A stretch of 64,000 nt of DNA from Candidatus Giovannonibacteria bacterium (GCA_016176295.1 JACOXN010000006.1:18466-82465), one strand, 5' to 3'. Positions 2,333 to 63,207 are shown, counted from the stretch's first letter. Notes: generated by a model from the sequence alone, not told the origin. Numbers and translations: made by a program.

Positions 2333-3883
2333 ATGGCGCTTAAACTCCATTCCGCGGAAGTCCTGGGACTTTCGGGAAAAATAATCGATGTGGAAATAGA
2401 TCTCTCGCCGGGGCTCTTCAGTTTTTCCATTGTAGGACTCGCCGATAAATCCGTTTCCGAATCGAAAGAACGGATTTCCGCCGCCATCAAAAGTTTCGGA
2501 GCCAAGTCTCCCCAGAAAAAAAACCAGCGTGTCGTTATATCGCTGGCTCCGGCCGATCTTAAAAAAGAAGGACCGGTTTTTGACCTCGCCATCGCGCTCG
2601 CTTATCTTCTGGCTTCCAAACAGGCTAAATTCGAACCAAAAGGAAAAATTTTCCTGGGGGAGCTGGCTTTGGACGGCACGCTTCGACCGATAAAAGGCGT
2701 ACTCGCACTGGCGGAAGAAGCAGCCCGGGCCGGGTTTAAAGAATTTTACATACCGAAAGGTAACGGAGAGGAAGCGGCCCTTGTTTCAAATATTAAAGTT
2801 TATGAGGTAGAGTCTCTTGCAGACACCGTGGAGCATCTGGAAGGGAAAGTCGAGATACCGGAAGTTCCCAAAACAAAAATTATTTATGAGGATTCGAATT
2901 CGATTTTGGATTTTTCCGATATCAAAGGGCAGGAATCCGCCAAGCGCGGCCTGGAAATCGCGGCGGCCGGTGCCCACAACGCTCTGATGGTGGGTCCTCC
3001 CGGCACCGGGAAAACAATGCTCGCCCGCGCTTTCGCCTCCATACTTCCTCCTCTTTCACGCGAAGAAATTTTGGAGGTAACAAAAATTCATTCAATTGCC
3101 GGCGCTTTAAAAGACGCTAACACGGTAGTTAAAGAGAGGCCTTTCCGAAATCCGCACCATACTTCCTCCTATGTTTCCATCGTGGGCGGGGGAACATACC
3201 CGAAGCCGGGCGAAGCAACCTTGGCGCACCGGGGAGTATTGTTCCTGGACGAGTTCGCGGAGTTCGAAAGGAAAGTCATAGAAGCTTTGCGCCAGCCTTT
3301 GGAAGATAAAATGATAACCGTCTCCCGCGCCAAAGCTACGCTTAATTTTCCCGCGCAGATAATGATGATACTCGCTATGAATCCCTGCCCCTGCGGCAAC
3401 TTAGGCTCACAAAAAAGCTGCATCTGCTCTCCTTCGGCTGTCAGCCGCTACCAAAGAAAAATTTCAGGACCCATTGTTGACCGCATCGACCTCTGGCTCG
3501 GAGTTTATGCGATAGATCATAAAAAATTGGAAGATGACCCGTCGGCCCAAAGCCTTGAAAAATCAAAAGCCATCCGCGCCCGCGTTGAAAAAGCGCGCGA
3601 GACCCAAAAGAAAAGGTTTGCGGGAACTAACCTGCCTGCCGGTAGGCAAGGAATAGTTTCCAACTCAGAAATGTCGGTGAGGGAGATAAAAAAATATTGC
3701 GAGCTGGATAACGAATCCAAATCCATATTACAGCAGGCCGCGGCCCGGCTCGACCTTTCCCCGCGCTCGTACCACCGCGTCATTAAGCTCGCCCGCACCA
3801 TAGCCGACCTCGCAGGAGAAAAGAATATAAAAAAAGAACACCTTCTGGAAGCTCTCCAATACAGACCGAAACAGTTGGTATAA
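2333..3883 (+). CDS. comM: Mg-chelatase-like AAA+ protein ComM/YifB
   Basis: N-terminal Lon-like domain (IVGLADKSVSESKERI), Walker A GPPGTGKTM, and C-terminal ...SYHRVIKLARTIADL. Confidence 0.9.
   Translation: MALKLHSAEVLGLSGKIIDVEIDLSPGLFSFSIVGLADKSVSESKERISAAIKSFGAKSPQKKNQRVVISLAPADLKKEGPVFDLAIALAYLLASKQAKFEPKGKIFLGELALDGTLRPIKGVLALAEEAARAGFKEFYIPKGNGEEAALVSNIKVYEVESLADTVEHLEGKVEIPEVPKTKIIYEDSNSILDFSDIKGQESAKRGLEIAAAGAHNALMVGPPGTGKTMLARAFASILPPLSREEILEVTKIHSIAGALKDANTVVKERPFRNPHHTSSYVSIVGGGTYPKPGEATLAHRGVLFLDEFAEFERKVIEALRQPLEDKMITVSRAKATLNFPAQIMMILAMNPCPCGNLGSQKSCICSPSAVSRYQRKISGPIVDRIDLWLGVYAIDHKKLEDDPSAQSLEKSKAIRARVEKARETQKKRFAGTNLPAGRQGIVSNSEMSVREIKKYCELDNESKSILQQAAARLDLSPRSYHRVIKLARTIADLAGEKNIKKEHLLEALQYRPKQLV
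3631..3651. repeat. GC-rich palindromic element copy (CCTGCCTGCCGGTAGGCAAGG), in frame inside comM
   Basis: Translates as LPAGRQG. It falls in a segment about 8 aa longer than my recalled E. coli ComM sequence. The right arm is degenerate. Confidence 0.6.
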
Positions 3884-3886
3884 TTT

Positions 3887-5116
3887 TTACCCCACTTCTC
3901 CCACGAACATTGGGATATTGAGACGGCGGACGGAGTGCTGTAAGCTCGCGTGCGCGGCGAAGCTTGAACCTAAAAACACCGCGTGTTTGCCGTATTTTTC
4001 GCGAACTTTGTCCACACTTTCGTAAACTTTTTTCAAACTTTCCACTTTCAAAGAATCGCCGAACAGGTCGGGCTGCGGATTGAGAACGCTTGTGAGTTTA
4101 AGAAGAGCGACCCCTGTAGCCCGGTATTTAAACCGGGTATCGAACAGCCCGCCAAAAAGCGGACGGAGCGAAGAAATTATCTCGTTGGGAAAACTGGTCG
4201 CGCGCGAAAATTTTATTTCAAGCCCCAGATGGCCGAAACCGCTCGTCCGTAAAAAAAAGTTAACCTCCCTAGCTGCCAACTTATAGCGCCTGGCCTTGAT
4301 ACAGGCGTTCTCTATATTTTTTGAAAGCTGCGAGAACACGAAATTTGAATCTCCCGAAGCAGGAGTGAAAGTTCTCACTTTCTGTATGCTTTGATAAGTT
4401 TCTTTCTCGTCGGAATTTACGGGGTAGACGCTCACTCCGCGTAATTCCTGCCATATTTCGTAAAAAGACTTCGAAAGATTCTGACGTATAAAATCTTCAT
4501 CCTTTTCCGCGTAGTCCAGCGCAGTAAAAATATTTTTTTTGGCAAGAAATTCCTCAGTTTGCGGCCCGATGCCCCAGACTTTCCCCGCCGGAAGAAGTTT
4601 TAAATAATGAGGGGCCAGCCTTTGGGAAATTACCGTGAGCCCGGAGGGTTTATTCCATTTTGAGCCGATCTTGGCAAGCACTTTCGTCGGAGCCAAACCC
4701 ACGGAAAAAGTAAAACCGAGTTCAGTATAAAGCTCGCCCTTTATTGTTTCGGCAATGGCGGCATAAGAAGAATGGTATGCCCGCCGCAGGCCGGTTATAT
4801 CGGCGAAGCATTCGTCTATCGAATATTCCTCCACAGCGGGCGTGTGCCTCCGCACAATATCATACATGCGTTTTGAAAGAAGACTGTAAGTCTCGTAATC
4901 GGAGGGTAAAATTATAGCGTCCGGACAAATCTTTCTTACTTCATCCAGCTTCATCGCGCGCGTAATACCTCTGGCTTTTGCCTCGTAGCTCATGGAAGAA
5001 GCGATGCCCCGTTCCTGGCCGGTAACCACCGGCTTGCCTTTGAGAGCGGGATTTAGAGACTGCTCGCACGAAGCGAAAAAAGCATCTCCATCTATGTGAA
5101 GAATGGCCTTTTCCAT
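3887..5116 (-). CDS. dinB: Y-family DNA polymerase (DinB/UmuC-like)
   Basis: HIDGDAFFASCE and SIDECFADIT catalytic motifs. It sits directly downstream of lexA. Confidence 0.88.
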   Translation of the reverse strand: MEKAILHIDGDAFFASCEQSLNPALKGKPVVTGQERGIASSMSYEAKARGITRAMKLDEVRKICPDAIILPSDYETYSLLSKRMYDIVRRHTPAVEEYSIDECFADITGLRRAYHSSYAAIAETIKGELYTELGFTFSVGLAPTKVLAKIGSKWNKPSGLTVISQRLAPHYLKLLPAGKVWGIGPQTEEFLAKKNIFTALDYAEKDEDFIRQNLSKSFYEIWQELRGVSVYPVNSDEKETYQSIQKVRTFTPASGDSNFVFSQLSKNIENACIKARRYKLAAREVNFFLRTSGFGHLGLEIKFSRATSFPNEIISSLRPLFGGLFDTRFKYRATGVALLKLTSVLNPQPDLFGDSLKVESLKKVYESVDKVREKYGKHAVFLGSSFAAHASLQHSVRRLNIPMFVGEVG

Positions 5117-5118
5117 TT

Positions 5119-5685
5119 TTAATATTTGCGGATGACGCTTATAACCACCGCCGCCACTCTCATGTCTTCGCGGGGGATGATGGTATTATATTTTTTGTTG
5201 GCGGGTATAAGCTCGACTTTATTGCCGGTCTTTCTGAAATATTTCATGGTCCAGCCGCCGTCCACTTCGGCGATAACAATGTCGCCGTTCTTGGGAGTTT
5301 TGCTCCGGTCCACAAGCACCATATCGCCTTCGATGATACCGGCGTCTATCATGGAGTCTCCTTTTACTTTCAGCATGTAGGTCGCCTCCTTATTGTTTAT
5401 GAGCCATTCGTCCAAAGTCATCGTATCTTGCAGCTCCTCCTCGGCTGCGGATGGAAAGCCCGCTTCGACCGTCCCTAAAACTTTTATCTCTCCAAAAAGA
5501 CGGGTGGGGGAGAGCCGACCTTCCCCATCTTTTGTAATTATCCCTCTCTCAACCAATTTATTTATGAGTTTAAAAACGGCGTTCTTCGATCTGAACCCAA
5601 AAAGTTCCATCATCTCACGATACCCCGGCATCCTTTTGTGCCTTTTATAAAATTTTATTAGTTTATCGGAGTGTTCGCTTTTCAT
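5119..5685 (-). CDS. lexA: LexA repressor (winged-helix plus S24 peptidase)
   Basis: VEAGFPS cleavage site (Ala-Gly), GDSM catalytic Ser, and a downstream MKYFRK Lys. Confidence 0.9.
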   Translation of the reverse strand: MKSEHSDKLIKFYKRHKRMPGYREMMELFGFRSKNAVFKLINKLVERGIITKDGEGRLSPTRLFGEIKVLGTVEAGFPSAAEEELQDTMTLDEWLINNKEATYMLKVKGDSMIDAGIIEGDMVLVDRSKTPKNGDIVIAEVDGGWTMKYFRKTGNKVELIPANKKYNTIIPREDMRVAAVVISVIRKY

Positions 5686-5686
5686 T

Positions 5687-5872: not shown

Positions 5873-5884
5873 ATCCCAATGATA

Positions 5885-5902: not shown

Positions 5903-5928
5903 CGTCAACCGCGCCCAGCTGGATAAAC

Positions 5929-5937: not shown

Positions 5938-6077
5938 CGAAATACTTGACAAAATCAAAAAATAAGTTTAAACTAACAAAGGAATCTGCAAAAAATTATA
6001 CTTCACAAAAACCCCAATTTTTTGGTGTTATAATTAAAGCAGAAAAAAGACTGTTTTTGACAAGGAAGGAGAAAGCC

Positions 6078-6512: not shown

Positions 6513-6592
6513 GTGAAAAACAGTTTTGAAAGGCAAAAGAAAAGCGTCAAAAAAAGGCGCTTTTTTTCTTGCGGAGCTTTTAATGAAATAAC

Positions 6593-7739: not shown

Positions 7740-8111
7740 TTACGTGAGCTGCTTTTTCACTTTTTCCAGGACATCCGCCGGGCTGAATTCCGCTTTCACT
7801 ACATAGTCTTTGGCCCCCAAAGCCATAGCGCGGTCTATCTCAACCGGCTGCCCGGAATTGGAAACAACTATCACGGGTATGCTGATATTTTCGGTTTTCA
7901 TCCTTTCCAGGATGGCAAAGCCGTCCATTTTGGGAAGGATCATATCCAGAAGCACAAGGTCGGGTTTCCCGGTCTTTATCATTTCAAAACCCGATTCGCC
8001 GTCCATCGCGGCTAAAACATCGTAACCCTCCCTGGCCAGTTTGGATTTCATAACCTCCAGATGGGTGGGTTCGTCTTCGATTATCAGTATTTTTTTTACT
8101 TCGGTTTCCAT
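7740..8111 (-). CDS. Stand-alone response-regulator receiver (CheY-like)
   Basis: ILIIEDE...LLDMILPKMDG...VSNSGQ...GAKDY. It is a close paralog of REC1 of the CDS at 50941..51833. Confidence 0.9.
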   Translation of the reverse strand: METEVKKILIIEDEPTHLEVMKSKLAREGYDVLAAMDGESGFEMIKTGKPDLVLLDMILPKMDGFAILERMKTENISIPVIVVSNSGQPVEIDRAMALGAKDYVVKAEFSPADVLEKVKKQLT

Positions 8112-8156
8112 TTTTTTATCCTATATTAGTTCTTGAGCCGTGACAAATTTGAGCCG

Positions 8157-9146
8157 TTAAAAAGGGTTTACGGCTCCTCTTACTTCAAAATGCAAATGAC
8201 AGCCCGTAGAGTTTCCGGAGGTACCCACGTTCCCTATTCTTCCGCCCTGGGCGATGAACTGTCCCGGTGTAACATAAACCGCAGAAAGGTGAGAATAGAG
8301 CGTCTGAACTCCGTTAGGATGCCTGATCACTATATATTGGCCATAGCCTCCATTCCAACCGACGCTTTTGGCGAGAAGAACATCTCCGGAAGCAGAGGCG
8401 ATAACCGGCGTACCGCAGCTATTAGCCAAATCCACGCCGTTGAAACCGTGCAGCCCCTGCGATTTTCTGCCCCCGTCGATAGGCCGCAGAAAATATCCGA
8501 CGAGATTAGGACCTCCGGCCCCTCGCGCCTTTGCTTTGGTTGAAGACGACGACAGAGACGGGGAAGCGGATATATTTAGCTCAGCATCGGGAATAATGAG
8601 CGTAGCTCCGATTTTCAAAGCGGCCCCCGGTGTGAGATCGTTGAATGCGGTTATCTCCTCAGCATCGCTTTTATATTTTTTAGCAATAGATGCCACCGTG
8701 TCACCTTTTTTGACCTCGTACTGCAAGCCGGAAATAGGTAATATTACCAAAGTATCGCCGGGCCTGATGACATCCGTCCGCTTAAGATCATTGGCCCAAT
8801 AAATCGTTTGTAAACTAACTCCAAACATATCCGCTATCTTCGATATATTATCCCCGTCGCGGATAGTGTAAGTAGTAATCTGGTCGAGTTTATAAGTTTC
8901 CACGTCCGCAACACTGCCCAATGGACCTATCACAGGCAATATTGAAGAACCTTCCACAAAATTCATTACCGTCCCCCCTACCGCCAGGACGGGTTCCGCA
9001 GTATTGGGAGCTTTAAGCAAAGGCAGCTTTTGGACGTTGAACACCTCTTCTTCTACAACCTCCTCTCCGTGAACCAATCTGCTTACGAACGAAAAAAAGT
9101 CGGCTTCCGCCGGTGTAGAATAAGAGAAAAATATAGCCAACGCCAT
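8157..9146 (-). CDS. LysM-domain M23 family peptidase
   Basis: Two LysM repeats (YTIRDGDNISKIADMF..., YEVKKGDTVASIAKKY...). M23 core is HPNGVQTLYSHLS...GNSTGCHLHFEV. Confidence 0.9.
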   Translation of the reverse strand: MALAIFFSYSTPAEADFFSFVSRLVHGEEVVEEEVFNVQKLPLLKAPNTAEPVLAVGGTVMNFVEGSSILPVIGPLGSVADVETYKLDQITTYTIRDGDNISKIADMFGVSLQTIYWANDLKRTDVIRPGDTLVILPISGLQYEVKKGDTVASIAKKYKSDAEEITAFNDLTPGAALKIGATLIIPDAELNISASPSLSSSSTKAKARGAGGPNLVGYFLRPIDGGRKSQGLHGFNGVDLANSCGTPVIASASGDVLLAKSVGWNGGYGQYIVIRHPNGVQTLYSHLSAVYVTPGQFIAQGGRIGNVGTSGNSTGCHLHFEVRGAVNPF

Positions 9147-9372
9147 AAAGATGCCCCAAAGAGTTTGAGCGAACGAAAAACGAACTATTATTTTGTTAGT
9201 TAAAATAGGTTTAAAAGCTAAAATAAAGCCTTGCTTTTGCGGTAAAAATCGTTGTACAGAGCCATATATTACCGCCTATGCATCAATTCGACCGATACCC
9301 CCAATTTAGCAGAATTCGCCCTCGGAGGCAATCATTATATCCACAACTAGGCAAGTCTGATATTATAGCCAA

Positions 9373-11265
9373 ATGAACACGGAAAACTCACTAAATTCTA
9401 AGCAAAAAGAAGCCGTGGAGGCAACCGAAGGTCCGGTTCTTGTTGTCGCGGGCGCGGGGGCCGGAAAAACCAAAGTCATCACCGAAAGAATTAAGCTCCT
9501 CATGAAAAATGGAGTGCCGCCGGAAGAAATCATTGCGGTCACTTTCACTAACAAAGCGGCGGGAGAAATGAAAGCAAGAACTATTGAACAAAATTCGGAT
9601 ATTAAAAAATTTCGGCTGCCGTTCATCGGCACTTTCCACGCGCTCGGGCTTCTTATGATGAAAGAGAATGCCAAAAAATTGGGACTCTCGGGGCGTTTTA
9701 CTATAATTGACGAGGACGACTCGATAAAACTAGTGAAGGAAAGTGTATTGGAACTGAATCTGGATATAAAACAATTCGACCCTTCCAGAATGAAGCATCA
9801 GATATCTTCTTTTAAAAATAAGCTAGTGGAACAGGAAGAATGCGCCGAAGAAGGATATTTCGGCGAAATCTTGTGTAAAATATGGCAGCTTTACGAAAAA
9901 AAAACCAAAGCGCAAGAATTCCTGGATTTTGACGACCTGATATTAAAACCGACGCGCCTTTTGATGCGGGACAAAAATACCCTTGAAAAATACCAGAACA
10001 GATGGCGATACATCCATGTCGACGAATACCAGGATACCAACGAAGCGCAATACATGCTTTCCAAACTTCTGAGCGCCAAGCACAGGAATATTTTTGTAGT
10101 GGGGGACATTGACCAGGCCATCTATAGCTGGCGCGGGGCGGATTTCAGGAATGTTTTGAGCTTCCAGCAAGATTATCCGGATGCCAAAATAATCACCCTG
10201 GAAGAAAATTACCGCTCAACGGACATAATTCTCGAGGCGGCCAACGCCGTGATAATAAACAATAAGATGCGGGTCCCCAAGAACTTGTGGACCAAAAAAA
10301 CCGGGCGCGAAAAAATAAAAATTATGGTGGCGGAAGACGAAAAAATAGAAGCGGAAACAGTGGCTTTCGAGATACTTACTTTAAAAAGAGGACGCATTCC
10401 GGCGCTCGAAATGGCCGTCCTGTACCGGACCAACGCCCAGTCGCGCGCCATTGAAGAAGCTCTTTTGTCGCATAACATCGCCTATCGCATCGTAGGCGGG
10501 GTTCGCTTTTACGAAAGACGGGAAATAAAGGACCTGCTGGCCTATGTGAGACTTGTGCAAAACCCCCAAGATGAAATTAGCAGAAAAAGGATACTAAACG
10601 TTCCTGCGAGGGGAATAGGGAAGACCCTGGCCACGAAAATTTTTGGAAAAACAATTCCCTTAAAACCCGAGGAAGAGAAAAAAATAAAGGATTTTGAAGC
10701 TCTGATTGACGACCTGCGCAAAACTTCGGCTGAGAAAAAACCTTTCGAATTTTTGCGCTACGCTGTCCAAAAGACCGGCTACCGAAGATACATCGAGGAC
10801 GGCACGGAAAAAGGCATGGACAGATGGCAAAACGTTGAAGAGCTGATAGCGATTTCAAGGAAAAATGAGGATTTGGAGGAATTTTTGGAACATGTTTCGC
10901 TTTTTTCGGCCGAAGATGTTTATGAACCGGAGGATGGTTCGGGTAAGGTAAACCTTATGACCATTCACTCTTCGAAAGGGCTAGAATTCGAGGCAGTATT
11001 CGTGGTAGGCATGGAAGAAGGTCTTTTCCCTCACGTGTTATCCCTTGATGCCACAGACTTGGAAGAAGAAAGGAGACTCTGCTACGTGGCCATAACCCGC
11101 GCCAAAACGAAACTTTACCTTTCACTCGCCGCCCGGCGCGCAATATTCGGAGAACGAATATCCAACATGCCTTCGCGTTTTTTAAAAGAATTCCCGGAAC
11201 ATCTCCTGGAATACCAGGAGATGTTCCCGCCGGATGGCGGACTGCCGGAAATCATTATTGAATAA
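9373..11265 (+). CDS. uvrD: UvrD/PcrA-type superfamily 1 DNA helicase
   Basis: Walker A AGAGAGKT, DEYQDTN, YRS, and a VAITRAK C-terminal motif. Confidence 0.9.
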   Translation: MNTENSLNSKQKEAVEATEGPVLVVAGAGAGKTKVITERIKLLMKNGVPPEEIIAVTFTNKAAGEMKARTIEQNSDIKKFRLPFIGTFHALGLLMMKENAKKLGLSGRFTIIDEDDSIKLVKESVLELNLDIKQFDPSRMKHQISSFKNKLVEQEECAEEGYFGEILCKIWQLYEKKTKAQEFLDFDDLILKPTRLLMRDKNTLEKYQNRWRYIHVDEYQDTNEAQYMLSKLLSAKHRNIFVVGDIDQAIYSWRGADFRNVLSFQQDYPDAKIITLEENYRSTDIILEAANAVIINNKMRVPKNLWTKKTGREKIKIMVAEDEKIEAETVAFEILTLKRGRIPALEMAVLYRTNAQSRAIEEALLSHNIAYRIVGGVRFYERREIKDLLAYVRLVQNPQDEISRKRILNVPARGIGKTLATKIFGKTIPLKPEEEKKIKDFEALIDDLRKTSAEKKPFEFLRYAVQKTGYRRYIEDGTEKGMDRWQNVEELIAISRKNEDLEEFLEHVSLFSAEDVYEPEDGSGKVNLMTIHSSKGLEFEAVFVVGMEEGLFPHVLSLDATDLEEERRLCYVAITRAKTKLYLSLAARRAIFGERISNMPSRFLKEFPEHLLEYQEMFPPDGGLPEIIIE

Positions 11266-11345
11266 CACCTCCCCACGCCCCTCCTTAGTAAAGAGGGGAA
11301 ATCAAAAGTTCCTCCCCTTTACAAGGGGAGGGTTGGGAAGGGTAA
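11266..11345. repeat. Two adjacent degenerate copies of the nested palindromic repeat family
   Basis: ACACCTCCCCACG-CCCCTCcttagtaaaGAGGGG, then CCTCCCCTT-TAC-AAGGGGAGG-GTTGGGAAGGGT. Architecture matches the copies at 26094 and 41499. Confidence 0.6.
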
Positions 11346-11355: not shown

Positions 11356-11990
11356 ATGTTAAAACCAAACAAAAGATTAGGCCAACACTTTTTAAAGAAT
11401 GCCAAAATTCTGGAAGAAATTGCAGATTCAGCTGAACTGACCAAAAGTGACACCGTCTTGGAAGTAGGACCGGGCACGGGAACCCTCACGGAAGTTTTGG
11501 CTGTAGGGACAAAAAAAGTTATCGCAGTGGAAAAAGACCGGAACTTGATTCCGATTTTGCGGGAAAAATTCAAAAACACTAAAAACGTGGAAATAATCGA
11601 GGGAGATATTTTAAAATTAACCTCACCCCTGGCCCCTCTCCTTACGAAGGAGAGGGGGTTTAAGGTCGTCGCCAACATCCCTTATTACATAACGTCAAAG
11701 CCTACGGAAAGCCCAAAATAGTGAGGAACGTTTCGAAAAATTTTTTCAGCCCTCCGCCCAAAATGGATTCAGCTGTGATAAAAATAGACGAAATATCGGA
11801 CAAATGGTTCAAAAACAACAAAATCCCGGAAGAAAAATTTTTTGAGGTATTGCATGCGGCTTTCCGTCAAAAAAGAAAGATGTTAAGGCATTCTCTCAGT
11901 AAAACATATAAAATACCGCCGGAATTTGCAGAAAAACGTCCGGAGAAACTCCGCCTTGAGGACTGGCTTAGTATATTTCGAGTAAAATAA
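11356..11990 (+). pseudogene. rsmA: 16S rRNA dimethyladenosine transferase RsmA/KsgA, disrupted (internal deletion plus frameshift)
   Basis: ORF1 11356..11721 (GQHFL, EVGPGTGTLT, NIPYYITS) stops. ORF2 11721..11990 in another frame resumes at (A)YGKPKIVRNVSKNFFSPPPKMDSAV. The roughly 55 residues normally between these motifs are absent. Confidence 0.7.
11619..11657. repeat. Nested palindromic repeat copy inside the rsmA reading frame
   Basis: AACCTCACCC...CCCCTCTCCTT-ACG-AAGGAGAGGGG (11-bp stem). Translated in frame as TSPLAPLLTKERG. Confidence 0.7.
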
Positions 11991-15703: not shown

Positions 15704-16096
15704 ATGTTCCGAGAACAAAAACCTACCAATGACAACATAGTGACGCTTTGGACGGTCCTGATAATAATTGGGGCCGTCGTGGCCTATTTAAGTTTTTCGG
15801 GGTGGTTTTTTGATTTTTCAAAAGAATCGGCGAAAACCATTTTGAAAAATATTTTTCCTTCCGCAAAAGATGTTGAGGTGGCGCCGCTCAAATCTACACT
15901 AAGCGCGGAGGAGCGCGTTCCGGCACCGTCTACCCCGCCAGCTTTTCCAAGCGCCGCTTCCTCCAAGCCGACATCCATACCTTCACCAACCTCGGCCCCA
16001 TCCGGCGGATTAAAATCTCCGCCAGCTGGCGGATCCGAACAAAATAAGGAAGCTTTGCCGCCTCCTCCTCCTCCGCCACCGCCACCTAGTTTATAA
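15704..16096 (+). CDS. Small membrane-anchored Pro-rich protein ending in P10
   Basis: One TM helix, a Pro/Ser-rich tail, and a C-terminal PPPPPPPPPPSL. Confidence 0.5.
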   Translation: MFREQKPTNDNIVTLWTVLIIIGAVVAYLSFSGWFFDFSKESAKTILKNIFPSAKDVEVAPLKSTLSAEERVPAPSTPPAFPSAASSKPTSIPSPTSAPSGGLKSPPAGGSEQNKEALPPPPPPPPPPSL

Positions 16097-24793: not shown

Positions 24794-24800
24794 AAAAATT

Positions 24801-26093: not shown

Positions 26094-26146
26094 CCACCTC
26101 ACCCTACCCTCTCCTTCTAAAGGAGAGGGGGCAAGGGGGTGAGGTT
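26094..26146. repeat. Complete nested palindromic repeat (outer ACCTCACCC/GGGTGAGGT, inner CCCTCTCCTT-CTA-AAGGAGAGGG)
   Basis: Read directly. It lies between convergent genes and abuts the jag stop codon, so it probably also acts as a bidirectional terminator. Confidence 0.75.
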
Positions 26147-27345: not shown

Positions 27346-27703
27346 ATAAAAATGATCTTTTAAGTATATCTATCATATCATCCCTTAATTCCATAAAGCC
27401 AGGGACTCGTTTTTTCTGAACAGCCATAAAAAAAACCAGGTCGTAGCCGGGTTTTACCCCCGCCAAAATTTCTTCCGCCACGGCATTCATCCGGCGCCTC
27501 GCCAAATTGCGAAAAGCCGCCCCTTTTTTGAATTTTACGGATACAACGAAAGTCCATCTTGAACTTTTGGTCCTGCCTGTCCGACAGGCAGGACCGTTTG
27601 GCGCGTATTTTAAGGTCAAAAGATTTCCCTTTGCAAAGCGCGTTTTAATCTTAAAAAAAATATTTAAATCCCTTTTCCCTATTCTAAGTGATTTTTTCAG
27701 CAT
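27338..27703 (-). CDS. rnpA: RNase P protein component
   Basis: Basic 121-aa protein after rpmH, with an RNLARRRMN (RNR-like) motif. Confidence 0.8.
   Translation of the reverse strand: MLKKSLRIGKRDLNIFFKIKTRFAKGNLLTLKYAPNGPACRTGRTKSSRWTFVVSVKFKKGAAFRNLARRRMNAVAEEILAGVKPGYDLVFFMAVQKKRVPGFMELRDDMIDILKRSFLYV
27569..27595. repeat. GC-rich palindromic element copy (GGTCCTGCCTGTC-C-GACAGGCAGGACC), in frame inside rnpA
   Basis: Perfect 13-bp arms. Translated GPACRTGRT, in a loop about 6-7 aa longer than my recalled B. subtilis RnpA sequence. Confidence 0.7.
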
Positions 27704-41498: not shown

Positions 41499-41535
41499 CC
41501 CTCTCCTTCTGAAGGAGAGGGGTTGGGGGTGAGGT
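41499..41535. repeat. Nested palindromic repeat, partial copy (inner hairpin plus right outer arm)
   Basis: CCCTCTCCTT-CTG-AAGGAGAGGG followed by TTGGGGGTGAGGT. The left outer arm is missing. Confidence 0.7.
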
Positions 41536-42057: not shown

Positions 42058-44685
42058 GTGAACGACGGTAAAACCAAAACACTGGTCCTTTTGGACGCCC
42101 ACGCGTTGATACACCGCGCTTATCATGCGCTGCCGCATTTTACTTCCGCCAAAACCGGCGAACCAACCGGGGCTCTTTACGGTCTTTCTTCAATGCTTCT
42201 CAGGGTGACAAAAGAATTAAAACCCGATTACATGATGGCGGCCTACGACCTGCCGGAGCCGACTTTTCGCCATATCGCCTATGAAAACTACAAAGCCACG
42301 AGGAAAGAGACGGATGACGAGCTGAAATTACAGCTAGACCGCTCCCACGACGTCGTGGAGGCTTTCGGCATACCCATATTAAGCTCGCCTGGATTTGAGG
42401 CGGACGATATTTTGGGAACCATCACGGAACAAATAAAGAAAAATCCGCCGGCGGAGAAATTGAAGGTCATCATAGTTTCCGGGGATATGGATGTGCTGCA
42501 GCTCGTGGACGGCAAGGACGTACTGGTTTATACGATGAAAAGGGGAATTGAGGACACAATCACTTACGACGAGGATAAAGTTAAGGAAAGGTTCGGTTTT
42601 TCTCCTGAAATGCTTCCGGATTTCAAAGGATTGAAGGGCGACCCGTCCGACAATATAAAAGGAGTCAAAGGAGTAGGAGAAAAAACTGCCTCGGAACTGA
42701 TAAAAAAATTCGGTTCGCTGGAGCAGATGTACGTGTCGCTTAAAAAGGGCGATACCAAAGGGTTGAAAGAAAGAATAGCGAATTTGCTCCTGGAGAACGA
42801 GGCGGAAGCTTTTTTTTCAAAAAACCTGGCTACTATCCGAAAGGACGTGCCGGTGAAATTTGAGCTTCCAAAGGCCGTTTATCAGGTTAATACCGACGAG
42901 GTAAAGAATATTTTCGAAACCCTGGGTTTTTCGAGCCTGGTCCAGCGCCTGGAATTGAAACCGGCCTCCAAAGACGTGGAAATTCCCGAGGATCAGCTCG
43001 CACTTTCCTCCAGGCTGGTGGAGGAGAGCAAGGAAAAGTTCTGGGAGGATCTCGAAGCGTCGGACACTATTTTTCTGCTCTGGAACGAGGACAACTTTTT
43101 TGTGAAAGGGCTCGGACACAACTGGGTTTTTGAAGAAGATTTTTTCGGGAAGGACCGGGAAAAGTGGCAGGCTGTTTTTTCCGGAAAACTCGTCGTTTCT
43201 TTTTTGATAAAAGACCTTTTAAATATCCTGAAAAAATATTCCATAAGCAAGATAGAGCGCTCTTTCGACTGTTTTTTGGCCGCTTGGGTGGTGGAAAGCA
43301 CCATGAAAGCGCCGACCAGAGATGAAATGTTCTCTTACTTTCTGGTAAAACACGCCGGCCCCGTACCGATGGATACCATCGATATGATGCCCGACCTTTA
43401 TACAAAACTATGCACGCTTCTTAGGGAAAAGAGTCTGGAAAAGATTTTTTACCAGATAGAAATGCCCCTAGTGCCGGTTCTTGCGGAAATGGAGTATCGT
43501 GGGATCGCCATCGATTGGGATTTTATGGACAGGTTTAAAAAGGAAATATCGCAAAGGTTGTCCGTTATTGAGGAGGAAATTTATAAGCTGGCTGGCACCA
43601 AATTCAATATTAATTCTCCGTCGCAATTGGGCGAGATTTTGTTTAATAAATTGAAAATATCCAATAAGGACATTAAAAAGACAAAAACTGGAAAGATCTC
43701 AACCCGGGAGTCCGAACTTGTAAAATTGCGAGGAAAAGTTCCTTTGGCCGACAATATTCTGGAGTACCGCGAGCTTTCCAAGCTTTTAGGGACCTACATT
43801 GAGCCGCTTTCGGAGCTTTCCAAGGCTGACGGACGCATCCACACCACTTTCAACCAAACCGGCACTGTGACCGGAAGACTGTCTTCCGAGTCGCCTAATT
43901 TGCAGAATATTCCTTCGCGGAGTGAAACCGGGGCGCGGATACGCGACGCTTTCCAGGCATCCGGAGGGTTCACTTTTGTTTCTTTCGATTATTCACAGAT
44001 AGAGCTCCGGATATTGGCGGCGTTCTCCAAAGACGAGAAAATGATACAGGCGTTCAAGACCGGCACCGACATTCATGCGCTCACGGCCTCGCTCATTAAT
44101 AATGTTCCCTTGGAAAAAGTGACTTCCCGGATGAGGAGCGCCGCCAAAACCATTAATTTCGGCATAATTTATGGGATGGGTGTGAGACAGCTGGCCCAGA
44201 ATACCGGAATGACCCAGGAAGAGGCAAAAAAATTCTATGAAAAATATTTCCATGATTTTCCCAGAATACGTGCCTACATGGACGGGATAAAAACGTCCGC
44301 GAAAGAAAAAGGCTACGTTGAGACCCTTTTCGGCCGGAAGAGATTTTTTGACCTGCGCCGCATGAATAACGCCGTGCCTGCCGGCAGGCGGGGCTTTTGG
44401 GAGGCCGAAATGGAAAGAATGGCCGTCAATGCCGTTATTCAGGGTACCGACGCCGATATTGTAAAAAAGGCCATGATCGATGTAAATTCCACATTTTACA
44501 ACATGGAAATCTATCCACTTTTACAGATTCATGACGAATTGGTGTATGAAATACGCGATGATATAATGAAAAAAGCAATACCCGAGATAAAAAAGATAAT
44601 GGAAAACGCGGTAAGCCTGGCAGTTCCGCTTGTGGTAGACGTCAAAACCGGTAAAAGATTAGGGTCATTGCAGAGTAATAAATAA
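42058..44685 (+). CDS. polA: DNA polymerase I
   Basis: 5'-nuclease domain (LLDAHALIHRAYHA). Polymerase motifs DYSQIELR, RSAAKTINFGIIYG and QIHDELV. Confidence 0.95.
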   Translation: MNDGKTKTLVLLDAHALIHRAYHALPHFTSAKTGEPTGALYGLSSMLLRVTKELKPDYMMAAYDLPEPTFRHIAYENYKATRKETDDELKLQLDRSHDVVEAFGIPILSSPGFEADDILGTITEQIKKNPPAEKLKVIIVSGDMDVLQLVDGKDVLVYTMKRGIEDTITYDEDKVKERFGFSPEMLPDFKGLKGDPSDNIKGVKGVGEKTASELIKKFGSLEQMYVSLKKGDTKGLKERIANLLLENEAEAFFSKNLATIRKDVPVKFELPKAVYQVNTDEVKNIFETLGFSSLVQRLELKPASKDVEIPEDQLALSSRLVEESKEKFWEDLEASDTIFLLWNEDNFFVKGLGHNWVFEEDFFGKDREKWQAVFSGKLVVSFLIKDLLNILKKYSISKIERSFDCFLAAWVVESTMKAPTRDEMFSYFLVKHAGPVPMDTIDMMPDLYTKLCTLLREKSLEKIFYQIEMPLVPVLAEMEYRGIAIDWDFMDRFKKEISQRLSVIEEEIYKLAGTKFNINSPSQLGEILFNKLKISNKDIKKTKTGKISTRESELVKLRGKVPLADNILEYRELSKLLGTYIEPLSELSKADGRIHTTFNQTGTVTGRLSSESPNLQNIPSRSETGARIRDAFQASGGFTFVSFDYSQIELRILAAFSKDEKMIQAFKTGTDIHALTASLINNVPLEKVTSRMRSAAKTINFGIIYGMGVRQLAQNTGMTQEEAKKFYEKYFHDFPRIRAYMDGIKTSAKEKGYVETLFGRKRFFDLRRMNNAVPAGRRGFWEAEMERMAVNAVIQGTDADIVKKAMIDVNSTFYNMEIYPLLQIHDELVYEIRDDIMKKAIPEIKKIMENAVSLAVPLVVDVKTGKRLGSLQSNK
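44376..44389. repeat. GC-rich palindromic element core (GCCTGCCGGCAGGC), in frame inside polA
   Basis: Translated VPAGRRG. It lies in a loop between FGRKRFFDL and MERMAVN that is about 8 aa longer than in my recalled Taq Pol I sequence. Confidence 0.6.
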
Positions 44686-58990: not shown

Positions 58991-60202
58991 ATGCTGGATA
59001 GGATATTCTACATCGGGAAGAAAATAATTCCCCGGCCGGTTTTTGTTTTTTTCCAGCCTTATTATCATTGGTCACTTTCGCATTTTGCGGCGCTTTTTTA
59101 CGGTTTTCCCTCCCGGCACATCGTCGTTATCGGGGTCACTGGAACCAACGGAAAAACGACGGTGACGCATCTTCTTTCTAAAATCTTGGAAAGTTCGGGC
59201 TTAAAGGCGGCATCCGTCTCTTCACTCCGTTTTAAAATAAAGGAGAAAGAATGGAAGAACGAGCTCAAAATGACCATGCCAGGAAGGTTCAAAGTGCAGA
59301 AATTTTTAAGGGAGGCGGTACGCGCCGGCTGCACACACGCGATTCTGGAAGTCACTTCCGAAGGAATCAAGCAGTTCAGACACTCGGGTATAAATTTTCA
59401 TATGGCGGTCCTCACGAATGTTACCCCGGAGCATATTGAGTCGCACGGCGGATTCGAAAAATACCGGGCCGCAAAGGCCGAGCTCTTCAGGCGCGCTAAA
59501 ATCCACGTGCTGAACAAGGAAGACGAAAATTTCGAATATTTTAACGTCATCCCGGCGGAGAAAAAAATAATTTATACAAAAGAAAGTTTGCCCCGGAACA
59601 TACGTCTTAAACTTCCCGGAGATTTTAACCTTTCCAATGCCGCGGCCGTATACGTTGCGGCGCGCGAATTCGACGTTTCCGAAGAAAAGATAAAAGAAGT
59701 GCTGGAAAAAACGGAATTCATAGACGGGCGGCTGGAATTCGTCGTGCGCGAACCGTTTTCGGTGGTAGTTGATTATGCACATACCCCGGATGCGCTCCAG
59801 AAGGTTTATGAAACGTTAAGCACACAAGATTCAAGATTAATTTGTGTTCTTGGGGCGGCAGGTGGAGGTAGGGATAAGTGGAAAAGGCGCGAATTTGGTA
59901 AAATTGCCGCGAAGCACTGCGGAGAAATAATTTTAACCAACGAAGATCCATATGACGAAGACCCCGGCCAAATACTCTCTGAAATAGAATCCGGAGTTTC
60001 CAATTTTAAATTTCCAATTTCCAAAATTCTGGATCGAAAAGATGCAATTAGAGAAGCGTTAAAGCTAGCCAAATCTGGTGACACTGTAATTATCACGGGA
60101 AAGGGCGCGGAACCATGGCTTATGGGTCCCAATGGAACAAAAATTCCCTGGGATGACAGGGAAGTTGTTCGGGAAGAACTAAGAAATTTAAAATTTAAAT
60201 GA
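58991..60202 (+). CDS. murE: Mur ligase, MurE-like (short form lacking the N-terminal domain)
   Basis: GVTGTNGKTT, TNVTPEHIESHG and VDYAHTPDAL motifs. Confidence 0.8.
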   Translation: MLDRIFYIGKKIIPRPVFVFFQPYYHWSLSHFAALFYGFPSRHIVVIGVTGTNGKTTVTHLLSKILESSGLKAASVSSLRFKIKEKEWKNELKMTMPGRFKVQKFLREAVRAGCTHAILEVTSEGIKQFRHSGINFHMAVLTNVTPEHIESHGGFEKYRAAKAELFRRAKIHVLNKEDENFEYFNVIPAEKKIIYTKESLPRNIRLKLPGDFNLSNAAAVYVAAREFDVSEEKIKEVLEKTEFIDGRLEFVVREPFSVVVDYAHTPDALQKVYETLSTQDSRLICVLGAAGGGRDKWKRREFGKIAAKHCGEIILTNEDPYDEDPGQILSEIESGVSNFKFPISKILDRKDAIREALKLAKSGDTVIITGKGAEPWLMGPNGTKIPWDDREVVREELRNLKFK

Positions 60203-60693
60203 AAAATATATATTTGGTCATGCACAATATCCGGAGCCTGCACAATGTAGGCTCGATGTTCCGGACGGCGGACGCTATGGGGGTGAAAAAAATATATCTC
60301 ACCGGTTACACGCCCGCACCTTTCGATATTTTCGGAAAAGTCAGGAAAGATTTTCAGAAGACGGCATTGGGAGCTGAAAGTTACGTGGAGTGGGAAAAAA
60401 TAAAAAGCATCAACTCGGTTTTTAAAAAAGTAAAGAAAGAAAAAGTTTTTATTGCGGCTCTTGAGCAGGCAAAAAACAGCATTTTGCTCTGTCATTTTGC
60501 AACAAAATCATTACTTAGCAATCCGATTGCTAAGCGTGGGGTTGCGGTAGTGGTTGGAAATGAAGTAAAAGGAATTTCACCCGCAATCCTCAAAAAATGT
60601 GACAGAATCCTTGAAATCCCGATGCTTGGCAAAAAAGAATCTTTGAATGTTTCTGTGGCGGCGGGTATCGCGCTTTATGCATTCTCAAGGTAA
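60199..60693 (+). CDS. SpoU/TrmH-family RNA 2'-O-methyltransferase
   Basis: NIRSLHNVGSMFRTADAMG, VVGNEVKGIS and LNVSVAAGIALY motifs. Confidence 0.85.
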   Translation: MKNIYLVMHNIRSLHNVGSMFRTADAMGVKKIYLTGYTPAPFDIFGKVRKDFQKTALGAESYVEWEKIKSINSVFKKVKKEKVFIAALEQAKNSILLCHFATKSLLSNPIAKRGVAVVVGNEVKGISPAILKKCDRILEIPMLGKKESLNVSVAAGIALYAFSR

Positions 60694-60702
60694 AATGACG
60701 GT

Positions 60703-60906
60703 ATGGCTTCAAATGAACAATTGCCCGACCTCTTTGGGGAGAAACACGAAGACTTAAGCAAGTTAAATCCGATCCGGAAGGTTTTGCGCCAGATGGAAAT
60801 ATTGGAGGAAGAAAGAAAAAAGAAAACCGAAGAAGCTAAAAAAGAGGAGCGAAAAAAAATGACGGAAGAAAATCCTAATTTGAAGAATCTCCGCGGAGGC
60901 GTATAA
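60703..60906 (+). CDS. Small Lys/Glu-rich hypothetical protein
   Basis: 67-aa ORF in an otherwise tightly packed same-strand gene run. Confidence 0.35.
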   Translation: MASNEQLPDLFGEKHEDLSKLNPIRKVLRQMEILEEERKKKTEEAKKEERKKMTEENPNLKNLRGGV

Positions 60907-60914
60907 TTAAAAAT

Positions 60915-61316
60915 ATGCTAAGTATTTTCCCAAGTTTGCTTGATTATCAATTTTTTGCGCCTCTTATTCTGCGTCTGGCTTTGGCTGCTGTTTTTCTCGT
61001 GCATGGATACCCGAAGCTTTTCGGGGGCTTTAGCCACGCGGTTCATTTTTTCAATTCCTCCGGCATCAAGCCGGCCAAATTTTGGGTAGTAGTTGTGGGC
61101 TTAGCTGAATTATTAGGCGGCATACTGCTCCTTGCCGGTTTTCTGGTCCAGCCGGCGGCGTTTATTTTGGTTGCCAATCTTTTGGTGGCTATCTGGAAAG
61201 TTAAGTTTAAAGCGGGATTTGCGAACGGCTGGGAATTCGACCTGGTTCTCATTGCGATGCTTCTTTCGCTTTTGATACTGGGGCCCGGAGCCTATTCCAT
61301 AGATTTACCTCTATAA
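60915..61316 (+). CDS. DoxX-family membrane protein
   Basis: Four TM helices with the LRLALAAVFLVHGYPKLF signature. Confidence 0.8.
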   Translation: MLSIFPSLLDYQFFAPLILRLALAAVFLVHGYPKLFGGFSHAVHFFNSSGIKPAKFWVVVVGLAELLGGILLLAGFLVQPAAFILVANLLVAIWKVKFKAGFANGWEFDLVLIAMLLSLLILGPGAYSIDLPL

Positions 61317-61371
61317 ATACCTTCTCAAACGAATATTTGAAGAAGTGCCTCTGGCGTGGTACAAATTACTA

Positions 61372-62205
61372 ATGAACCCCGGAGACATAGTTTTTGATGT
61401 TGAGACAAAAAAGTCATTCGACGATGTGGGCGGGAAGGACCACATGGAAAAATTGGGGATATCTGTCATTGGCGCGTTCGTTTACGGAGAAAACCTGCCT
61501 GCCGGTCAGGCAGGCAAATATATTGCTTACGAAGAGCACGAACTTCCGGAATTTGAAAAACTTTTGAAAACCTCCGGGCGCGTCATCGGTTTCAATATTC
61601 ACCACTTCGATCTTCCGGTCCTCCAGCCCTACATGTCTTTCAATTTAAAAGAACTCTCAACCCTCGACCTGATGAACGACGTCGAAAAATCGGCCGGTTT
61701 CCGCATTTCGCTCGATAATCTTTGCGGAGCAACGTTCGGCCACAATAAGTCTTCCAACGGCATGCAGGCGATATATTGGTACCGCGAAGGGAAAATAGAG
61801 GAAATAAAAAAATATTGCATTAAGGATGTGGAGCTTACTAAAGACCTCTTTGAATACGGCGCAAAGAACGGCCAGGTGTTTTTTAATCCCAGGAACGCGC
61901 CGGGGAAAGTCGCTCTCTCCGTCGGGTGGGGGAACGCGGAAGTAAAAAATATCAGAAAAATATTGAAGCAGGGGCTGGAGGAGAAGCGAAGCATCGAACT
62001 TGAATATATCACAAAGCCTGAAGCTTCAGCCGAAGCCGTTTCTCGAAGGCTGGTTGATATTTACCGAATGAAGGGCGACTCGTTTGAGGGGTATTGCCAT
62101 TTGAGGAAAGCCGAGCGAGTATTCAAGATAGACAGGATAACGGACGCGCGCCTTACCAATAATGAATTTAAGTTAATTACGGATGTCCAAGGAAGTATTT
62201 TTTAA
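61372..62205 (+). CDS. RNase H-fold 3'-5' exonuclease domain fused to a WYL-like C-terminal domain
   Basis: FDVET..., GFNIHHFDLPVL and KYCIKDVELT (DEDD-type exonuclease motifs). C-terminal ...GDSFEGYCHLRKAERVFKIDRI is the WYL-domain pattern. An alternative GTG start lies at 61345. Confidence 0.65.
   Translation: MNPGDIVFDVETKKSFDDVGGKDHMEKLGISVIGAFVYGENLPAGQAGKYIAYEEHELPEFEKLLKTSGRVIGFNIHHFDLPVLQPYMSFNLKELSTLDLMNDVEKSAGFRISLDNLCGATFGHNKSSNGMQAIYWYREGKIEEIKKYCIKDVELTKDLFEYGAKNGQVFFNPRNAPGKVALSVGWGNAEVKNIRKILKQGLEEKRSIELEYITKPEASAEAVSRRLVDIYRMKGDSFEGYCHLRKAERVFKIDRITDARLTNNEFKLITDVQGSIF
61494..61514. repeat. GC-rich palindromic element copy (CCTGCCTG-CCGGT-CAGGCAGG), in frame inside the exonuclease gene
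   Basis: 21 nt, translated LPAGQAG, with perfect 8-bp arms. Confidence 0.7.
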
Positions 62206-62665
62206 TTTTTTAGGGAATACCCTCACCCTCGATGCAGTGATCGCGGGGATTTCCGATTTCATTAAGAAAGAACCCGGCAGAAAGTACAAAATAATAATCG
62301 GTACTGACTCGATGGCAGCCAACGAGACTTTTTTCGTCAGCGCCGTAACCGTCTGGAGGGTAGGGAACGGCGGGATACATTTTTGGTCCCGGTCGGAGAA
62401 GATAAAATGCCACAATCTGCGCGACCGCATCAACCGCGAGGCGATTCAGTCAATAACTTTGGCTCAGGAAGTGAGGGGCAGGCTTAAAGAAACTTTGGGC
62501 GATGAATTTTTCTGGGATGACCAGGTCCATATAGATATCGGGCGCCAAGGTCCAACGAAGGAATTCGTGGACTCGATTGTGGGAATGGTAAAAGCCTACG
62601 GGTTTGAAGCCGTTATCAAGCCATACTCTTTCGGAGCTTCTGTCGTGGCCGACAGGCACACTTAA
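62183..62665 (+). CDS. YkuK-like RNase H-fold protein (DUF458 family)
   Basis: KIIIGTDS...FVSAVTVWRVGNGG...ADRHT pattern. Overlaps the upstream gene by 23 nt. Confidence 0.6.
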   Translation: MSKEVFFNFLGNTLTLDAVIAGISDFIKKEPGRKYKIIIGTDSMAANETFFVSAVTVWRVGNGGIHFWSRSEKIKCHNLRDRINREAIQSITLAQEVRGRLKETLGDEFFWDDQVHIDIGRQGPTKEFVDSIVGMVKAYGFEAVIKPYSFGASVVADRHT

Positions 62666-62671
62666 AATTAT

Positions 62672-63091
62672 ATGTTAATTATAGTCACTTACATTATTGG
62701 TGCATTTTTAATCGCAGTAGTTTTTGTATTGCCCCATGCTTTATTAACTTTCAGACGAAAAAAACTGCAGGAGTTAGCTAATAAATATAATTTAAAATTT
62801 GAAATTATTCGTACGCCATTTTTTAAATTTAATTTTCCTCCCGGCAGAATTGTGTTGCAGAAAATTTCCGGTAATTTAAATGGACATGCGGTAGAAATTA
62901 CGGATGAAGCCATGGTTTTTCTTTTTATGGGCGGATGGATTGAAAATAGCTGGAATGATATATGGAATGATCCGTTTATTTCGTACAAACGGACTCGTTA
63001 CGTTTACGATAAAGGTGAAGAATTGTTAAAAAATTTTGGCGGATTCGCTAGTATTAAAAGTTTAGATAGTCGCTTAAGAAAGCTATTGTAG
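62672..63091 (+). CDS. Membrane-anchored hypothetical protein
   Basis: N-terminal TM helix. AT-rich coding region with no recognised domain. Confidence 0.45.
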   Translation: MLIIVTYIIGAFLIAVVFVLPHALLTFRRKKLQELANKYNLKFEIIRTPFFKFNFPPGRIVLQKISGNLNGHAVEITDEAMVFLFMGGWIENSWNDIWNDPFISYKRTRYVYDKGEELLKNFGGFASIKSLDSRLRKLL

Positions 63092-63094
63092 TTT

Positions 63095-63166
63095 GTCTCC
63101 ATAGCTCAACGGATAGAGCGCAGCCCTCCGAAGGCTGAAATTCCAGTTCGAGTCTGGATGGGGACA
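63095..63166 (+). tRNA. tRNA-Arg (anticodon CCG)
   Basis: Cloverleaf drawn by hand. Acceptor GTCTCCA/TGGGGAC (one G:U); D arm GCTC-AACGGATA-GAGC; anticodon arm CAGCC-CTCCGAA-GGCTG; T arm TCCAG-TTCGAGT-CTGGA. CCA is not encoded. Confidence 0.88.
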
Positions 63167-63180
63167 CAAAATTACAGGTT

Positions 63181-63207
63181 CCCTGCCTGCCGGCAGGCAG
63201 GGATTTT
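63181..63207 (+). terminator. tRNA terminator formed by a perfect copy of the GC-rich palindromic element
   Basis: CCCTGCCTGCCGGCAGGCAGGG (22-nt perfect palindrome) followed by ATTTTT. Confidence 0.8.

Follow-up and report, generated by a model that had tools for sequence, protein, structure and literature searches.

Introduction

Repetitive extragenic palindromic sequences (REPs) have been found in more than 80 species from eight phyla and include the GTAG and CGTC super-families; some lie in frame in genes of replication and repair, including those of DNA polymerase I and UvrABCD/RecBCD, and two Rickettsia palindromic elements (RPEs), RPE-4 and RPE-6, belong to the short CGTC REPs (Di Nocera et al. 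2013, PMC3733652). REPs have also been described as REPIN/RAYT systems, RAYT standing for REP-associated tyrosine transposase (Bertels & Rainey 2011, PMC3116915). In this study we analysed one 64-kb stretch, hereafter the window, of a 92,205-bp contig from a Candidatus Giovannonibacteria metagenome-assembled genome (MAG). It contains five copies of a GC-rich palindrome that we call P, after the 20-mer CCTGCCTGCCGGCAGGCAGG with halves CCTGCCTGCC|GGCAGGCAGG: four in frame in comM, rnpA, polA and a gene for an exonuclease with a WYL domain, and one downstream of a tRNA-Arg gene. These copies would extend in-frame palindromic insertion, as in Rickettsia RPEs and proteobacterial repair-gene REPs, to the reduced genomes of Patescibacteria. 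The inserted unit is only seven codons long, and P looks to be among the smallest insertion elements described.

REPs are 20-40 bp palindromic repeats with some in-frame genic copies and some families in distant phyla, and P is likewise; with five 20-27-nt copies in 64 kb, P is also a short stem-loop repeat present in several copies. The in-frame hosts of REPs are DNA polymerase I and repair genes, those of P are polA, comM, the exonuclease gene and rnpA. REPs are mostly intergenic, near gene 3' ends, and often form inverted doublets, whereas four of the five window copies of P are intragenic and all five are singletons; P is a fully symmetrical 20-mer, and its doublets are rare across phyla. 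Moreover, the flanks of 95 copies of P show neither the unpaired GTAG/CGTC tag nor any conserved tail, neither a RAYT nor another recurrent gene was found near P (120 loci, with part of the window open reading frames, ORFs, scanned), and its copy number, judged from the matches listed, is apparently low in most genomes, unlike that of REPs. The sequence of P is absent from the text and supplements of PMC3733652, and an exact-sequence literature search with P and the palindromes that co-occur with it returned no open microbial paper containing them.

With the RPEs, P shares palindromic DNA placed in frame, at protein surface positions, in genes that are still functional. RPEs are known only from Rickettsia, and RPE-1-type elements measure 100-150 nt and encode 30-50 residues, whereas P is 20-27 nt long, adds 7-9 residues and spans many phyla. 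Yeast mitochondrial GC clusters, too, are GC-rich palindromes of small size within a genome richer in AT, located in spacers and sometimes in frame in genes; they differ from P in being organellar, 30-60 nt long, accompanied by short target duplications and of unrelated sequence. In cyanobacteria, Elhai and colleagues reportedly described in 2008 the small dispersed repeats (SDRs) SDR4-6, families of 21-27 nt with presence/absence differences between relatives, genic and nested copies, and no known enzyme. The resemblance of P to these is one of behaviour only, namely the 21-27-nt unit, presence or absence between relatives and nesting in palindromes; the sequences are different, and SDRs have been described only in Nostocales-type cyanobacteria, where they are abundant, whereas P crosses phyla and is usually rare. 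SDR5 inserts precisely in the centre of the HIP1 palindrome (Elhai 2015, PMC4390886), which parallels the nesting of P in the centre of P reported below. Two features of P go beyond these precedents: a single-nucleotide hotspot in ComM that is used repeatedly, and the identity of the unit across phyla.

Results

Five copies of P in the window

Searching the window for CCTGCCTG-N0-8-CAGGCAGG returned three matches, at 27572-27592, 61494-61514 and 63182-63201. These are the perfect-arm copies (CCTGCCTG-N4-5-CAGGCAGG) of rnpA, the exonuclease-WYL gene and the 3' side of tRNA-Arg, and their exact arms enclose TCCGA, CCGGT and CCGG, respectively. Allowing up to three mismatches to P added 3631-3650 in comM and 44373-44392 in polA, each with two mismatches (Table 1). 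Among 100 dinucleotide-preserving shuffles of the window, none contained the full pattern and none a 20- or 21-mer at up to three mismatches, which excludes chance or composition as the source of the copies. The 8-mer arm occurs seven times against 0.9 expected; because all seven lie within the five sites and the arm is never found alone, the idea of a DNA-uptake sequence was dropped. A scan for perfect hairpins recovered a 27-nt palindrome in rnpA (27569-27595, 13-bp arms around a 1-nt centre) and a 24-nt one after tRNA-Arg. P itself is periodic and can be written (CCTG)2CC|GG(CAGG)2. Pfam identified the host products as a YifB/ComM Mg-chelatase-like ATPase, the RNase P protein, Pol I and a WYL-domain exonuclease of the RNase H-like type.

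These sites had been pointed out in a reading made from the window sequence alone (the original prediction), and all five are present where it had placed them. It had described conserved arms in all five; exact arms are restricted to three copies, those of comM and polA being degenerate. For the tRNA-Arg copy it had given a perfect 22-nt palindrome with a T-run: the T-run, T5, is there, and the palindrome is 24 nt long (63180-63203). The 13-bp arms in rnpA reappeared in our hairpin scan, the polA core is a perfect 14-mer, and translation reproduced the four proposed peptides. The proposed gene identities are backed by Pfam, and the tRNA-Arg by ARAGORN and Rfam; in the comparison with shuffled sequence that it had proposed, the motif is far above compositional expectation within the window.

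Table 1. Copies of P in the 64-kb window and the tRNA gene preceding the intergenic copy.
Feature	Position	Strand	Sequence or evidence	Encoded peptide	Host gene
comM/yifB copy	3631..3651	+	degenerate 21 nt, CCTGCCTGCCGGTAGGCAAGG	(N)LPAGRQG, residues 434-440	2333-3883 (+)
rnpA copy	27569..27595	-	perfect 27-nt palindrome, GGTCCTGCCTGTCCGACAGGCAGGACC; core 27572-27592	GPACRTGRT, residues 37-45	27338-27703 (-)
polA copy	44373..44393	+	degenerate 21 nt, CGTGCCTGCCGGCAGGCGGGG; perfect 14-nt core 44376-44389	VPAGRRG	42058-44685 (+)
Exonuclease-WYL copy	61494..61514	+	perfect-arm 21 nt, CCTGCCTGCCGGTCAGGCAGG	LPAGQAG, residues 51-57	61345-62205 (+)
Intergenic copy	63180..63208	+	perfect 24-nt palindrome, TCCCTGCCTGCCGGCAGGCAGGGA, plus T5; 20-mer at 63182-63201		
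tRNA-Arg (CCG)	63095..63167	+	ARAGORN; Rfam RF00005, 63.8 bits		

The intergenic palindrome begins 13 nt 3' of tRNA-Arg, which is the sole Rfam match over the window. Among terminator-like sites in 60000-64000 this copy was listed first (10 pairs, 7 G-C, loop 4, TTTTT), and as RNA it folds at -20.3 kcal/mol (z -4.2); the rnpA copy folds at -24.1 kcal/mol (z -5.95). It alone of the five combines a GC-rich stem-loop with an immediate T-run downstream of a gene, and it is a predicted intrinsic terminator.

The coding copies are lineage-specific insertions

The PolA segment that holds the copy has 8 residues more than its counterpart in the E. coli Klenow fragment, and its insert is present in 0/119 homologs, including the closest (57% identity); we take its position to be just before helix Q of the Klenow structures. 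For the exonuclease-WYL protein, a HMMER search gave 1,620 relatives, and none of 58 aligned representatives (identity up to 69%) has the seven residues LPAGQAG: the window protein reads YGEN|KYIAY across the junction, the relatives YGDN-TYVTY. The RnpA homolog search recovered only the query. Removing the nine residues left a colinear match to PF00825 (17-107 to 17-107), and the score went from 30.4 to 32.3 bits. A scan of JGI metagenomes found no empty exonuclease site, and 90%-identity clusters of the window proteins contained no insert-free variants. By the homolog and PF00825 comparisons, the PolA, exonuclease and RnpA inserts are unique to this lineage. All four coding copies, that of ComM included, are lineage-specific insertions of a multiple of three bases in otherwise conserved proteins.

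The central proposal of the original prediction, a short hairpin-forming unit of about 21 nt lying in frame in conserved genes and once as a terminator-like copy, is supported by these results. The check it had named for insertion was on orthologs, and these agree with it: the residues are missing from the PolA and exonuclease relatives, RnpA aligns with PF00825 once they are removed, and most of 120 ComM homologs have no insert, filled and empty alleles forming sister pairs (see below). The expected length of about 21 nt, or seven codons, holds for comM, polA and the exonuclease gene but not for rnpA, where the insert is 27 nt (9 residues). The suggested likeness to Rickettsia elements stands as far as in-frame palindromes are concerned, but the closest precedent is broader: REPs already described in frame in the gene of DNA polymerase I and in those of DNA repair (PMC3733652).

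Mapping onto structures, which had also been proposed, placed two of the inserts in loops. In the AlphaFold model of the exonuclease (mean predicted local distance difference test score, pLDDT, 91.3), LPAGQAG lies in loop 48-56, with strands 39-47 and 57-63 on either side. In that of ComM (mean pLDDT 77.5), LPAGRQG is in coil after helix 411-428, between helices, with pLDDT <50 at residues 435-438. The models thus suggest that both inserts occupy tolerated surface loops. For annotation, hairpins of this kind create lineage-specific loops in housekeeping proteins.

One nucleotide of comM has been filled or emptied repeatedly

Most of the 120 ComM homologs, including those of 78-81% identity, read G-SK-ILTNSEM without the seven residues. 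Six have 7 or 14 extra residues, all at one point, and four others have different inserts a few residues upstream. The codons at this point are ..AAA ATY.. (K I) in empty alleles and ..AAC + 21 nt .. GGA ATY in filled ones; at the DNA level, filled alleles carry related palindromes at one and the same nucleotide (CCTGCCTGCCGGTAGGCAAGG in the window, CCCGCCTGCCGGACGGGCAGG in L003, CCCGCCTGCCGGAAGGGCAGG in L165). Locus L001 has a 42-nt form (2 x 21), CCAGCCTGCCG[CCCGCCTGCCGGACGGGCAGG]GACGGGCAGG, in which the second unit is nested after position 11 of the first. The empty allele of L167 reads GGGACGAA|ACTGCTTACAAAC and the filled allele of L001 GGGACGAA[42 nt]ACTGCTTACAAAC, and the aligned flanks of the two match, save one substitution ~10 nt upstream. 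The insertion point falls inside a lysine codon (AA^A, in GACGAA^ACTG), and target bases are neither duplicated nor lost between L001 and L167.

In a neighbour-joining tree of ComM, each of five filled alleles stands beside an empty one. The pairs P0016/P0019, P0004/P0022 and P0006/P0009 share 95.3%, 94.7% and 91.7% amino-acid identity, with bootstrap values of 100, 100 and 91, and the filled alleles were monophyletic in 0/100 bootstrap replicates. Among close relatives within Giovannonibacteria, one nucleotide position of ComM has thus gained or lost an insert time and again. With filled, doubly filled and empty states in sister lineages that are 92-95% identical, this position is an unusually clean natural experiment. 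Distant Patescibacteria have a ComM loop of 5 to 21 residues without such a palindrome; the loop therefore tolerates changes in length. A metagenome scan for ComM returned mostly distant relatives (50-63% identity), and the ComM-bearing contigs from it, 463 kb not selected for P, were kept as a control set.

The same pattern could have arisen from one ancient insertion, its patchiness being due to repeated precise loss or to homologous recombination of the loop segment between strains. All filled alleles do share the exact nucleotide, the inserts of the different lineages are related variants, and palindromes are deletion-prone. We nevertheless regard a single ancient event as unlikely: at least 10 exact in-frame losses would be required, without flanking direct repeats, the nested 42-nt allele shows that addition took place at the site, and the PolA, exonuclease and RnpA inserts are lineage-unique. 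Such a history would moreover alter the number of events, not the nature of the element.

P occurs across many phyla

One genome per species, 185,579 species and 596 Gb in all, was scanned with the pattern CCTGCCTG-YCSG-N0-2-CAGGCAGG, and at least 120 stretches carried it. The exact 20-mer accounts for 95 of the matches listed, with unrelated flanks, where by our own arithmetic ~0.5 exact 20-mers (uniform composition) and at most ~10 (GC-rich DNA) are expected in 596 Gb. Carriers among the matches listed are many Patescibacteria (Saccharibacteria, WWE3, Uhrbacteria, Daviesbacteria and others), ~35 Bacteroidota, Planctomycetota, Omnitrophota, Nitrospirota, Chloroflexota, Ignavibacteria, and uncultured gamma- and deltaproteobacteria. 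The Bacteroidota include seven cultured strains, Winogradskyella, Flagellimonas, Aquiflexum, Longitalea, Flavivirga and Aestuariivivens among them. The phenomenon is thus not specific to bacteria of the candidate phyla radiation. P was also found on 35 viral contig stretches; the largest number of copies, six, was on a contig of 29.5 kb. Collections of plasmids and cultured phages gave a handful of sites (Sinorhizobium pSymB, Phaeobacter, Runella), which rules these out as the reservoir of P. One 20-mer with unrelated flanks, in many phyla and on viral contigs, raises a testable question about the copying and transfer of tiny DNA.

By the crude criterion that a reading frame stay open over at least 40 codons to either side, 27 of the 119 matches listed qualify and 92 do not; in other phyla, Pfam placed in-frame copies in an FtsK motor domain, a GDP-mannose-dehydratase-type epimerase and a Peptidase_C26 domain. 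Nested copies recur in L027, L030, L038 and L054, and many half-sites that occur alone are whole copies that have degenerated and not the termini of some larger unit. Most scanned genomes have a single P match each, among the matches listed. The window has five copies in its 64 kb; L163, a relative, has one in 15 kb, and 21.6 kb of L001 contain three variant copies. Neither P nor its 6-bp core occurs in the 463 kb of unselected ComM-bearing, Patescibacteria-like contigs, and the P family is for this reason considered enriched in this Giovannonibacteria clade.

Several variants and settings of P were noticed in passing. A viral contig (IMGVR_UViG_3300025106_000007, L157 3928-4137) carries ten head-to-tail 21-nt P-like units, CCATGCCTACCGGCAGGCAGG, which if coding would give a 7-residue repeat. 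A C-to-T variant, CCTGCCTGCCGGTAGGCAnGG, recurs in unrelated genomes (window 3631-3651, L050 3289, L139 1676, L157 3501, L030 2835) and may be a sub-family or reflect deamination of methylated cytosine in GCCGGC. On Planctomycetota- and Bacteroidota-type contigs (L124 10560-11300, L153, L064, L073, L088, L109), P often lies in a setting of short heptamer-like units repeated in tandem (GGTGAGA/GGTTAGA, GAGTGAT and TCTAAAA, for example). L163, the relative whose ComM is 78% identical, has a perfect P at 5982-6001, between M23 peptidase and uvrD genes; the orthologous spacer of the window (~9147-9372) has no match to P or to its arm, so that this site differs between relatives.

In four loci P is located near or at the 3' side of the D-loop in 5' tRNA fragments (L023 4041, L040 3628, L049 2127, L113 67), one of them in the cultured Agriterribacter humi. 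ARAGORN found no intact tRNA across any of the four sites and an intact tRNA just downstream in L023 and L040. Interruption of functional tRNA genes by P was therefore discarded, the four cases being 5' fragments or pseudogenes beside intact tRNAs.

Probable insertion of a preformed unit

Among 95 copies of P we found neither a target-site duplication nor a conserved flank: no position exceeds 39% for any base, the -1 position being A in 39% and T in 9%. In 21 orientable 21-mers, the arm that precedes CCGGN has a G on its 5' side in 14 cases and a T in none. All-against-all clustering of the ORFs in 120 P-bearing 8-kb loci gave no family present in more than 6 loci. A larger element or an adjoining transposase in these loci was rejected on this ground, and because half-sites are mostly degenerate whole copies.

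All together, the five sites are probably copies of a short, GC-rich, untagged mini-palindrome of the REP/RPE/SDR kind, inserted preformed by a trans-acting mechanism. P would join a site as a finished unit and not grow there, because growth in 4-nt steps would frameshift rnpA, polA and comM, and because empty alleles hold no seed hairpin. The mechanism would be sequence- or hairpin-specific, and the most plausible candidate, by analogy, is single-strand 'peel-and-paste' transposition as in IS200/IS605 insertion sequences, also proposed for REP/RAYT; it would leave no duplication and allow precise excision. Insertion may somewhat prefer hairpin loops, as in the nested copies, and disfavour a T directly 5' of the element. 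Selection would then retain only copies with a length in multiples of three, in tolerant surface loops, so that coding copies measure 21, 27 or 42 nt against 20 nt for most intergenic ones. Intergenic copies would stay at 20 nt and, where a T-run follows, would act as intrinsic terminators.

IS200/IS605 elements measure at least several hundred nt or have two distinct subterminal hairpins, recognise a specific tetra- or pentanucleotide that lies 5' of the point of insertion, and need TnpA. At the ComM site P resembles them in its hairpin-defined ends, the lack of a target-site duplication and its precise presence or absence. Unlike them, P has no fixed target motif, and no recurrent gene accompanies it in 120 loci. 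Since neither a fixed target motif nor a transposase was found, peel-and-paste is meant as an analogy and not as a classification.

Several points weigh against insertion of a preformed unit. In the 64 kb of this genome, no transposase or other candidate enzyme was found, and no conserved target motif of the IS200/IS605 type was found among the copies. A single match in most genomes, among the matches listed, fits poorly with amplification within genomes as the source of new copies. The ComM pattern could reflect one old insertion followed by many precise losses, or short-patch recombination between strains. Asymmetric 16-mers (CCTGCCGGCAGGCAGG) hint that arms also change by slippage. Finally, the putative terminator role of the tRNA-Arg copy derives from a consensus scan.

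A wider form of the proposal is tentative, and we think it rather doubtful: P and its sister palindromes would be pan-bacterial selfish DNA of 20-21 nt, inserted and excised precisely, with no target duplication, by a widespread hairpin-specific machinery, not by a gene of their own or one beside them, and crossing phyla, perhaps on phages. If so, they would be the smallest mobile units known.

Alternatively, the palindromes could form in place, a GC-rich hairpin (CCTGCC..GGCAGG) growing by CCTG slippage and being perfected by template-switching, with no transfer of a unit. The periodicity of P would suit such growth, as would the asymmetric 16-mers with one short arm (L088, L093, L101, L146 with three copies, L165) and the existence of doubled-arm (A A A' A') forms, and quasi-palindrome correction is an established mutational process. 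Formation in place is improbable all the same. In addition to the frameshifts and the seedless empty alleles mentioned above, the coding sites differ by a clean 21, 27 or 42 nt, independent growth would not be expected to yield one 20-mer at over 100 unrelated sites across many phyla, and other recurrent palindromes (TCCGCCAGCTGGCGGA, TCCCGATAGCTATCGGGA) have no tetranucleotide periodicity.

P could also be a selected functional site, such as an operator, a DNA structural signal or an RNA hairpin or terminator, whose genic copies are incidental or regulatory. In its favour, a T-run follows the tRNA-Arg copy, which is rated terminator-like; in other phyla, too, T-runs follow several copies or A/T runs flank them. 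The hairpins have high stability (-17 to -24 kcal/mol), and sequence identity across phyla suggests constraint. Many stems are equally stable, however, so termination leaves the use of one sequence unaccounted for, and by the crude criterion above 27/119 listed matches lie in long open frames. The comM and polA copies are decayed and close relatives lack the coding copies, so that these copies are not required. No recurrent neighbour gene or position relative to genes was seen, and no Rfam family was found at P copies. We therefore hold a selected site to be quite unlikely as an explanation of P.

A sequencing or assembly artefact, from adapter or linker junctions or palindrome-induced misassembly, is scarcely credible: carriers are mostly MAGs, the 20-mer is a perfect junction of X with reverse-complement(X) and Logan contigs break near palindromes, but the coding copies all measure a multiple of three and keep long reading frames open, orthologous copies from independent samples have diverged through point mutations, separate assemblies are in 100% agreement, P occurs in seven cultured isolates and in long-read chromosomes, and we know of no adapter with its sequence. 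The comM copy was recovered at 100% identity in two independent Logan assemblies of raw runs (SRR12113430, SRR12113383), and the tRNA-Arg copy, also at 100%, in two further Logan contigs from these runs.

Logan contigs L159 and L160 start at window ~63139 and ~63176, and L161 ends at window 11693, in each case within ~40 nt of a palindrome. Because contig ends lie so close to palindromes, palindromic hairpins seem to break short-read assemblies, which would make them relevant to assembly.

Other palindromes

A second palindrome family, CCCTCTCC-loop-GGAGAGGG, occurs in the window at 11634-11656, 26107-26129 and 41499-41521, with a related copy at 11311-11331, and is often embedded in CCTCACCCC...GGGGTGAGG. 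Its window copies all lie between genes; one of them, for instance, separates the convergent pair 24777-26069 (+) and jag/KhpB 26145-26636 (-). It is also present in L026, L032, L081, L096 and L106, from other phyla, and at L163 8373, within a called 16S rRNA methyltransferase (RrnaAD) gene (8104-8880).

The third palindrome, the 16-mer TCCGCCAGCTGGCGGA, is located at window 16018-16033, inside an ORF (15704-16096); identical 16-mers are found in L017, L023, L025, L043, L052 (two copies), L165 and L198. In L003, L197, L205 and L228, related units of 15 nt, TCCGCCnnnGGCGGA, are arranged as pairs in tandem. The 463 kb of unselected contigs gave 7 matches to this type and 0-1 to control arms. A fourth palindrome, (T/A)CCCGATAGCTATCGGG(A/T), was seen in L067, L078, L090 and L093, Bacteroidota loci that had been selected only for P. 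Last, a perfect 14-bp stem, GGAACATCTCCTGGAATACCAGGAGATGTTCC, lies at window 11196-11227, in the 3' coding end of uvrD (9373-11265), past the last Pfam domain.

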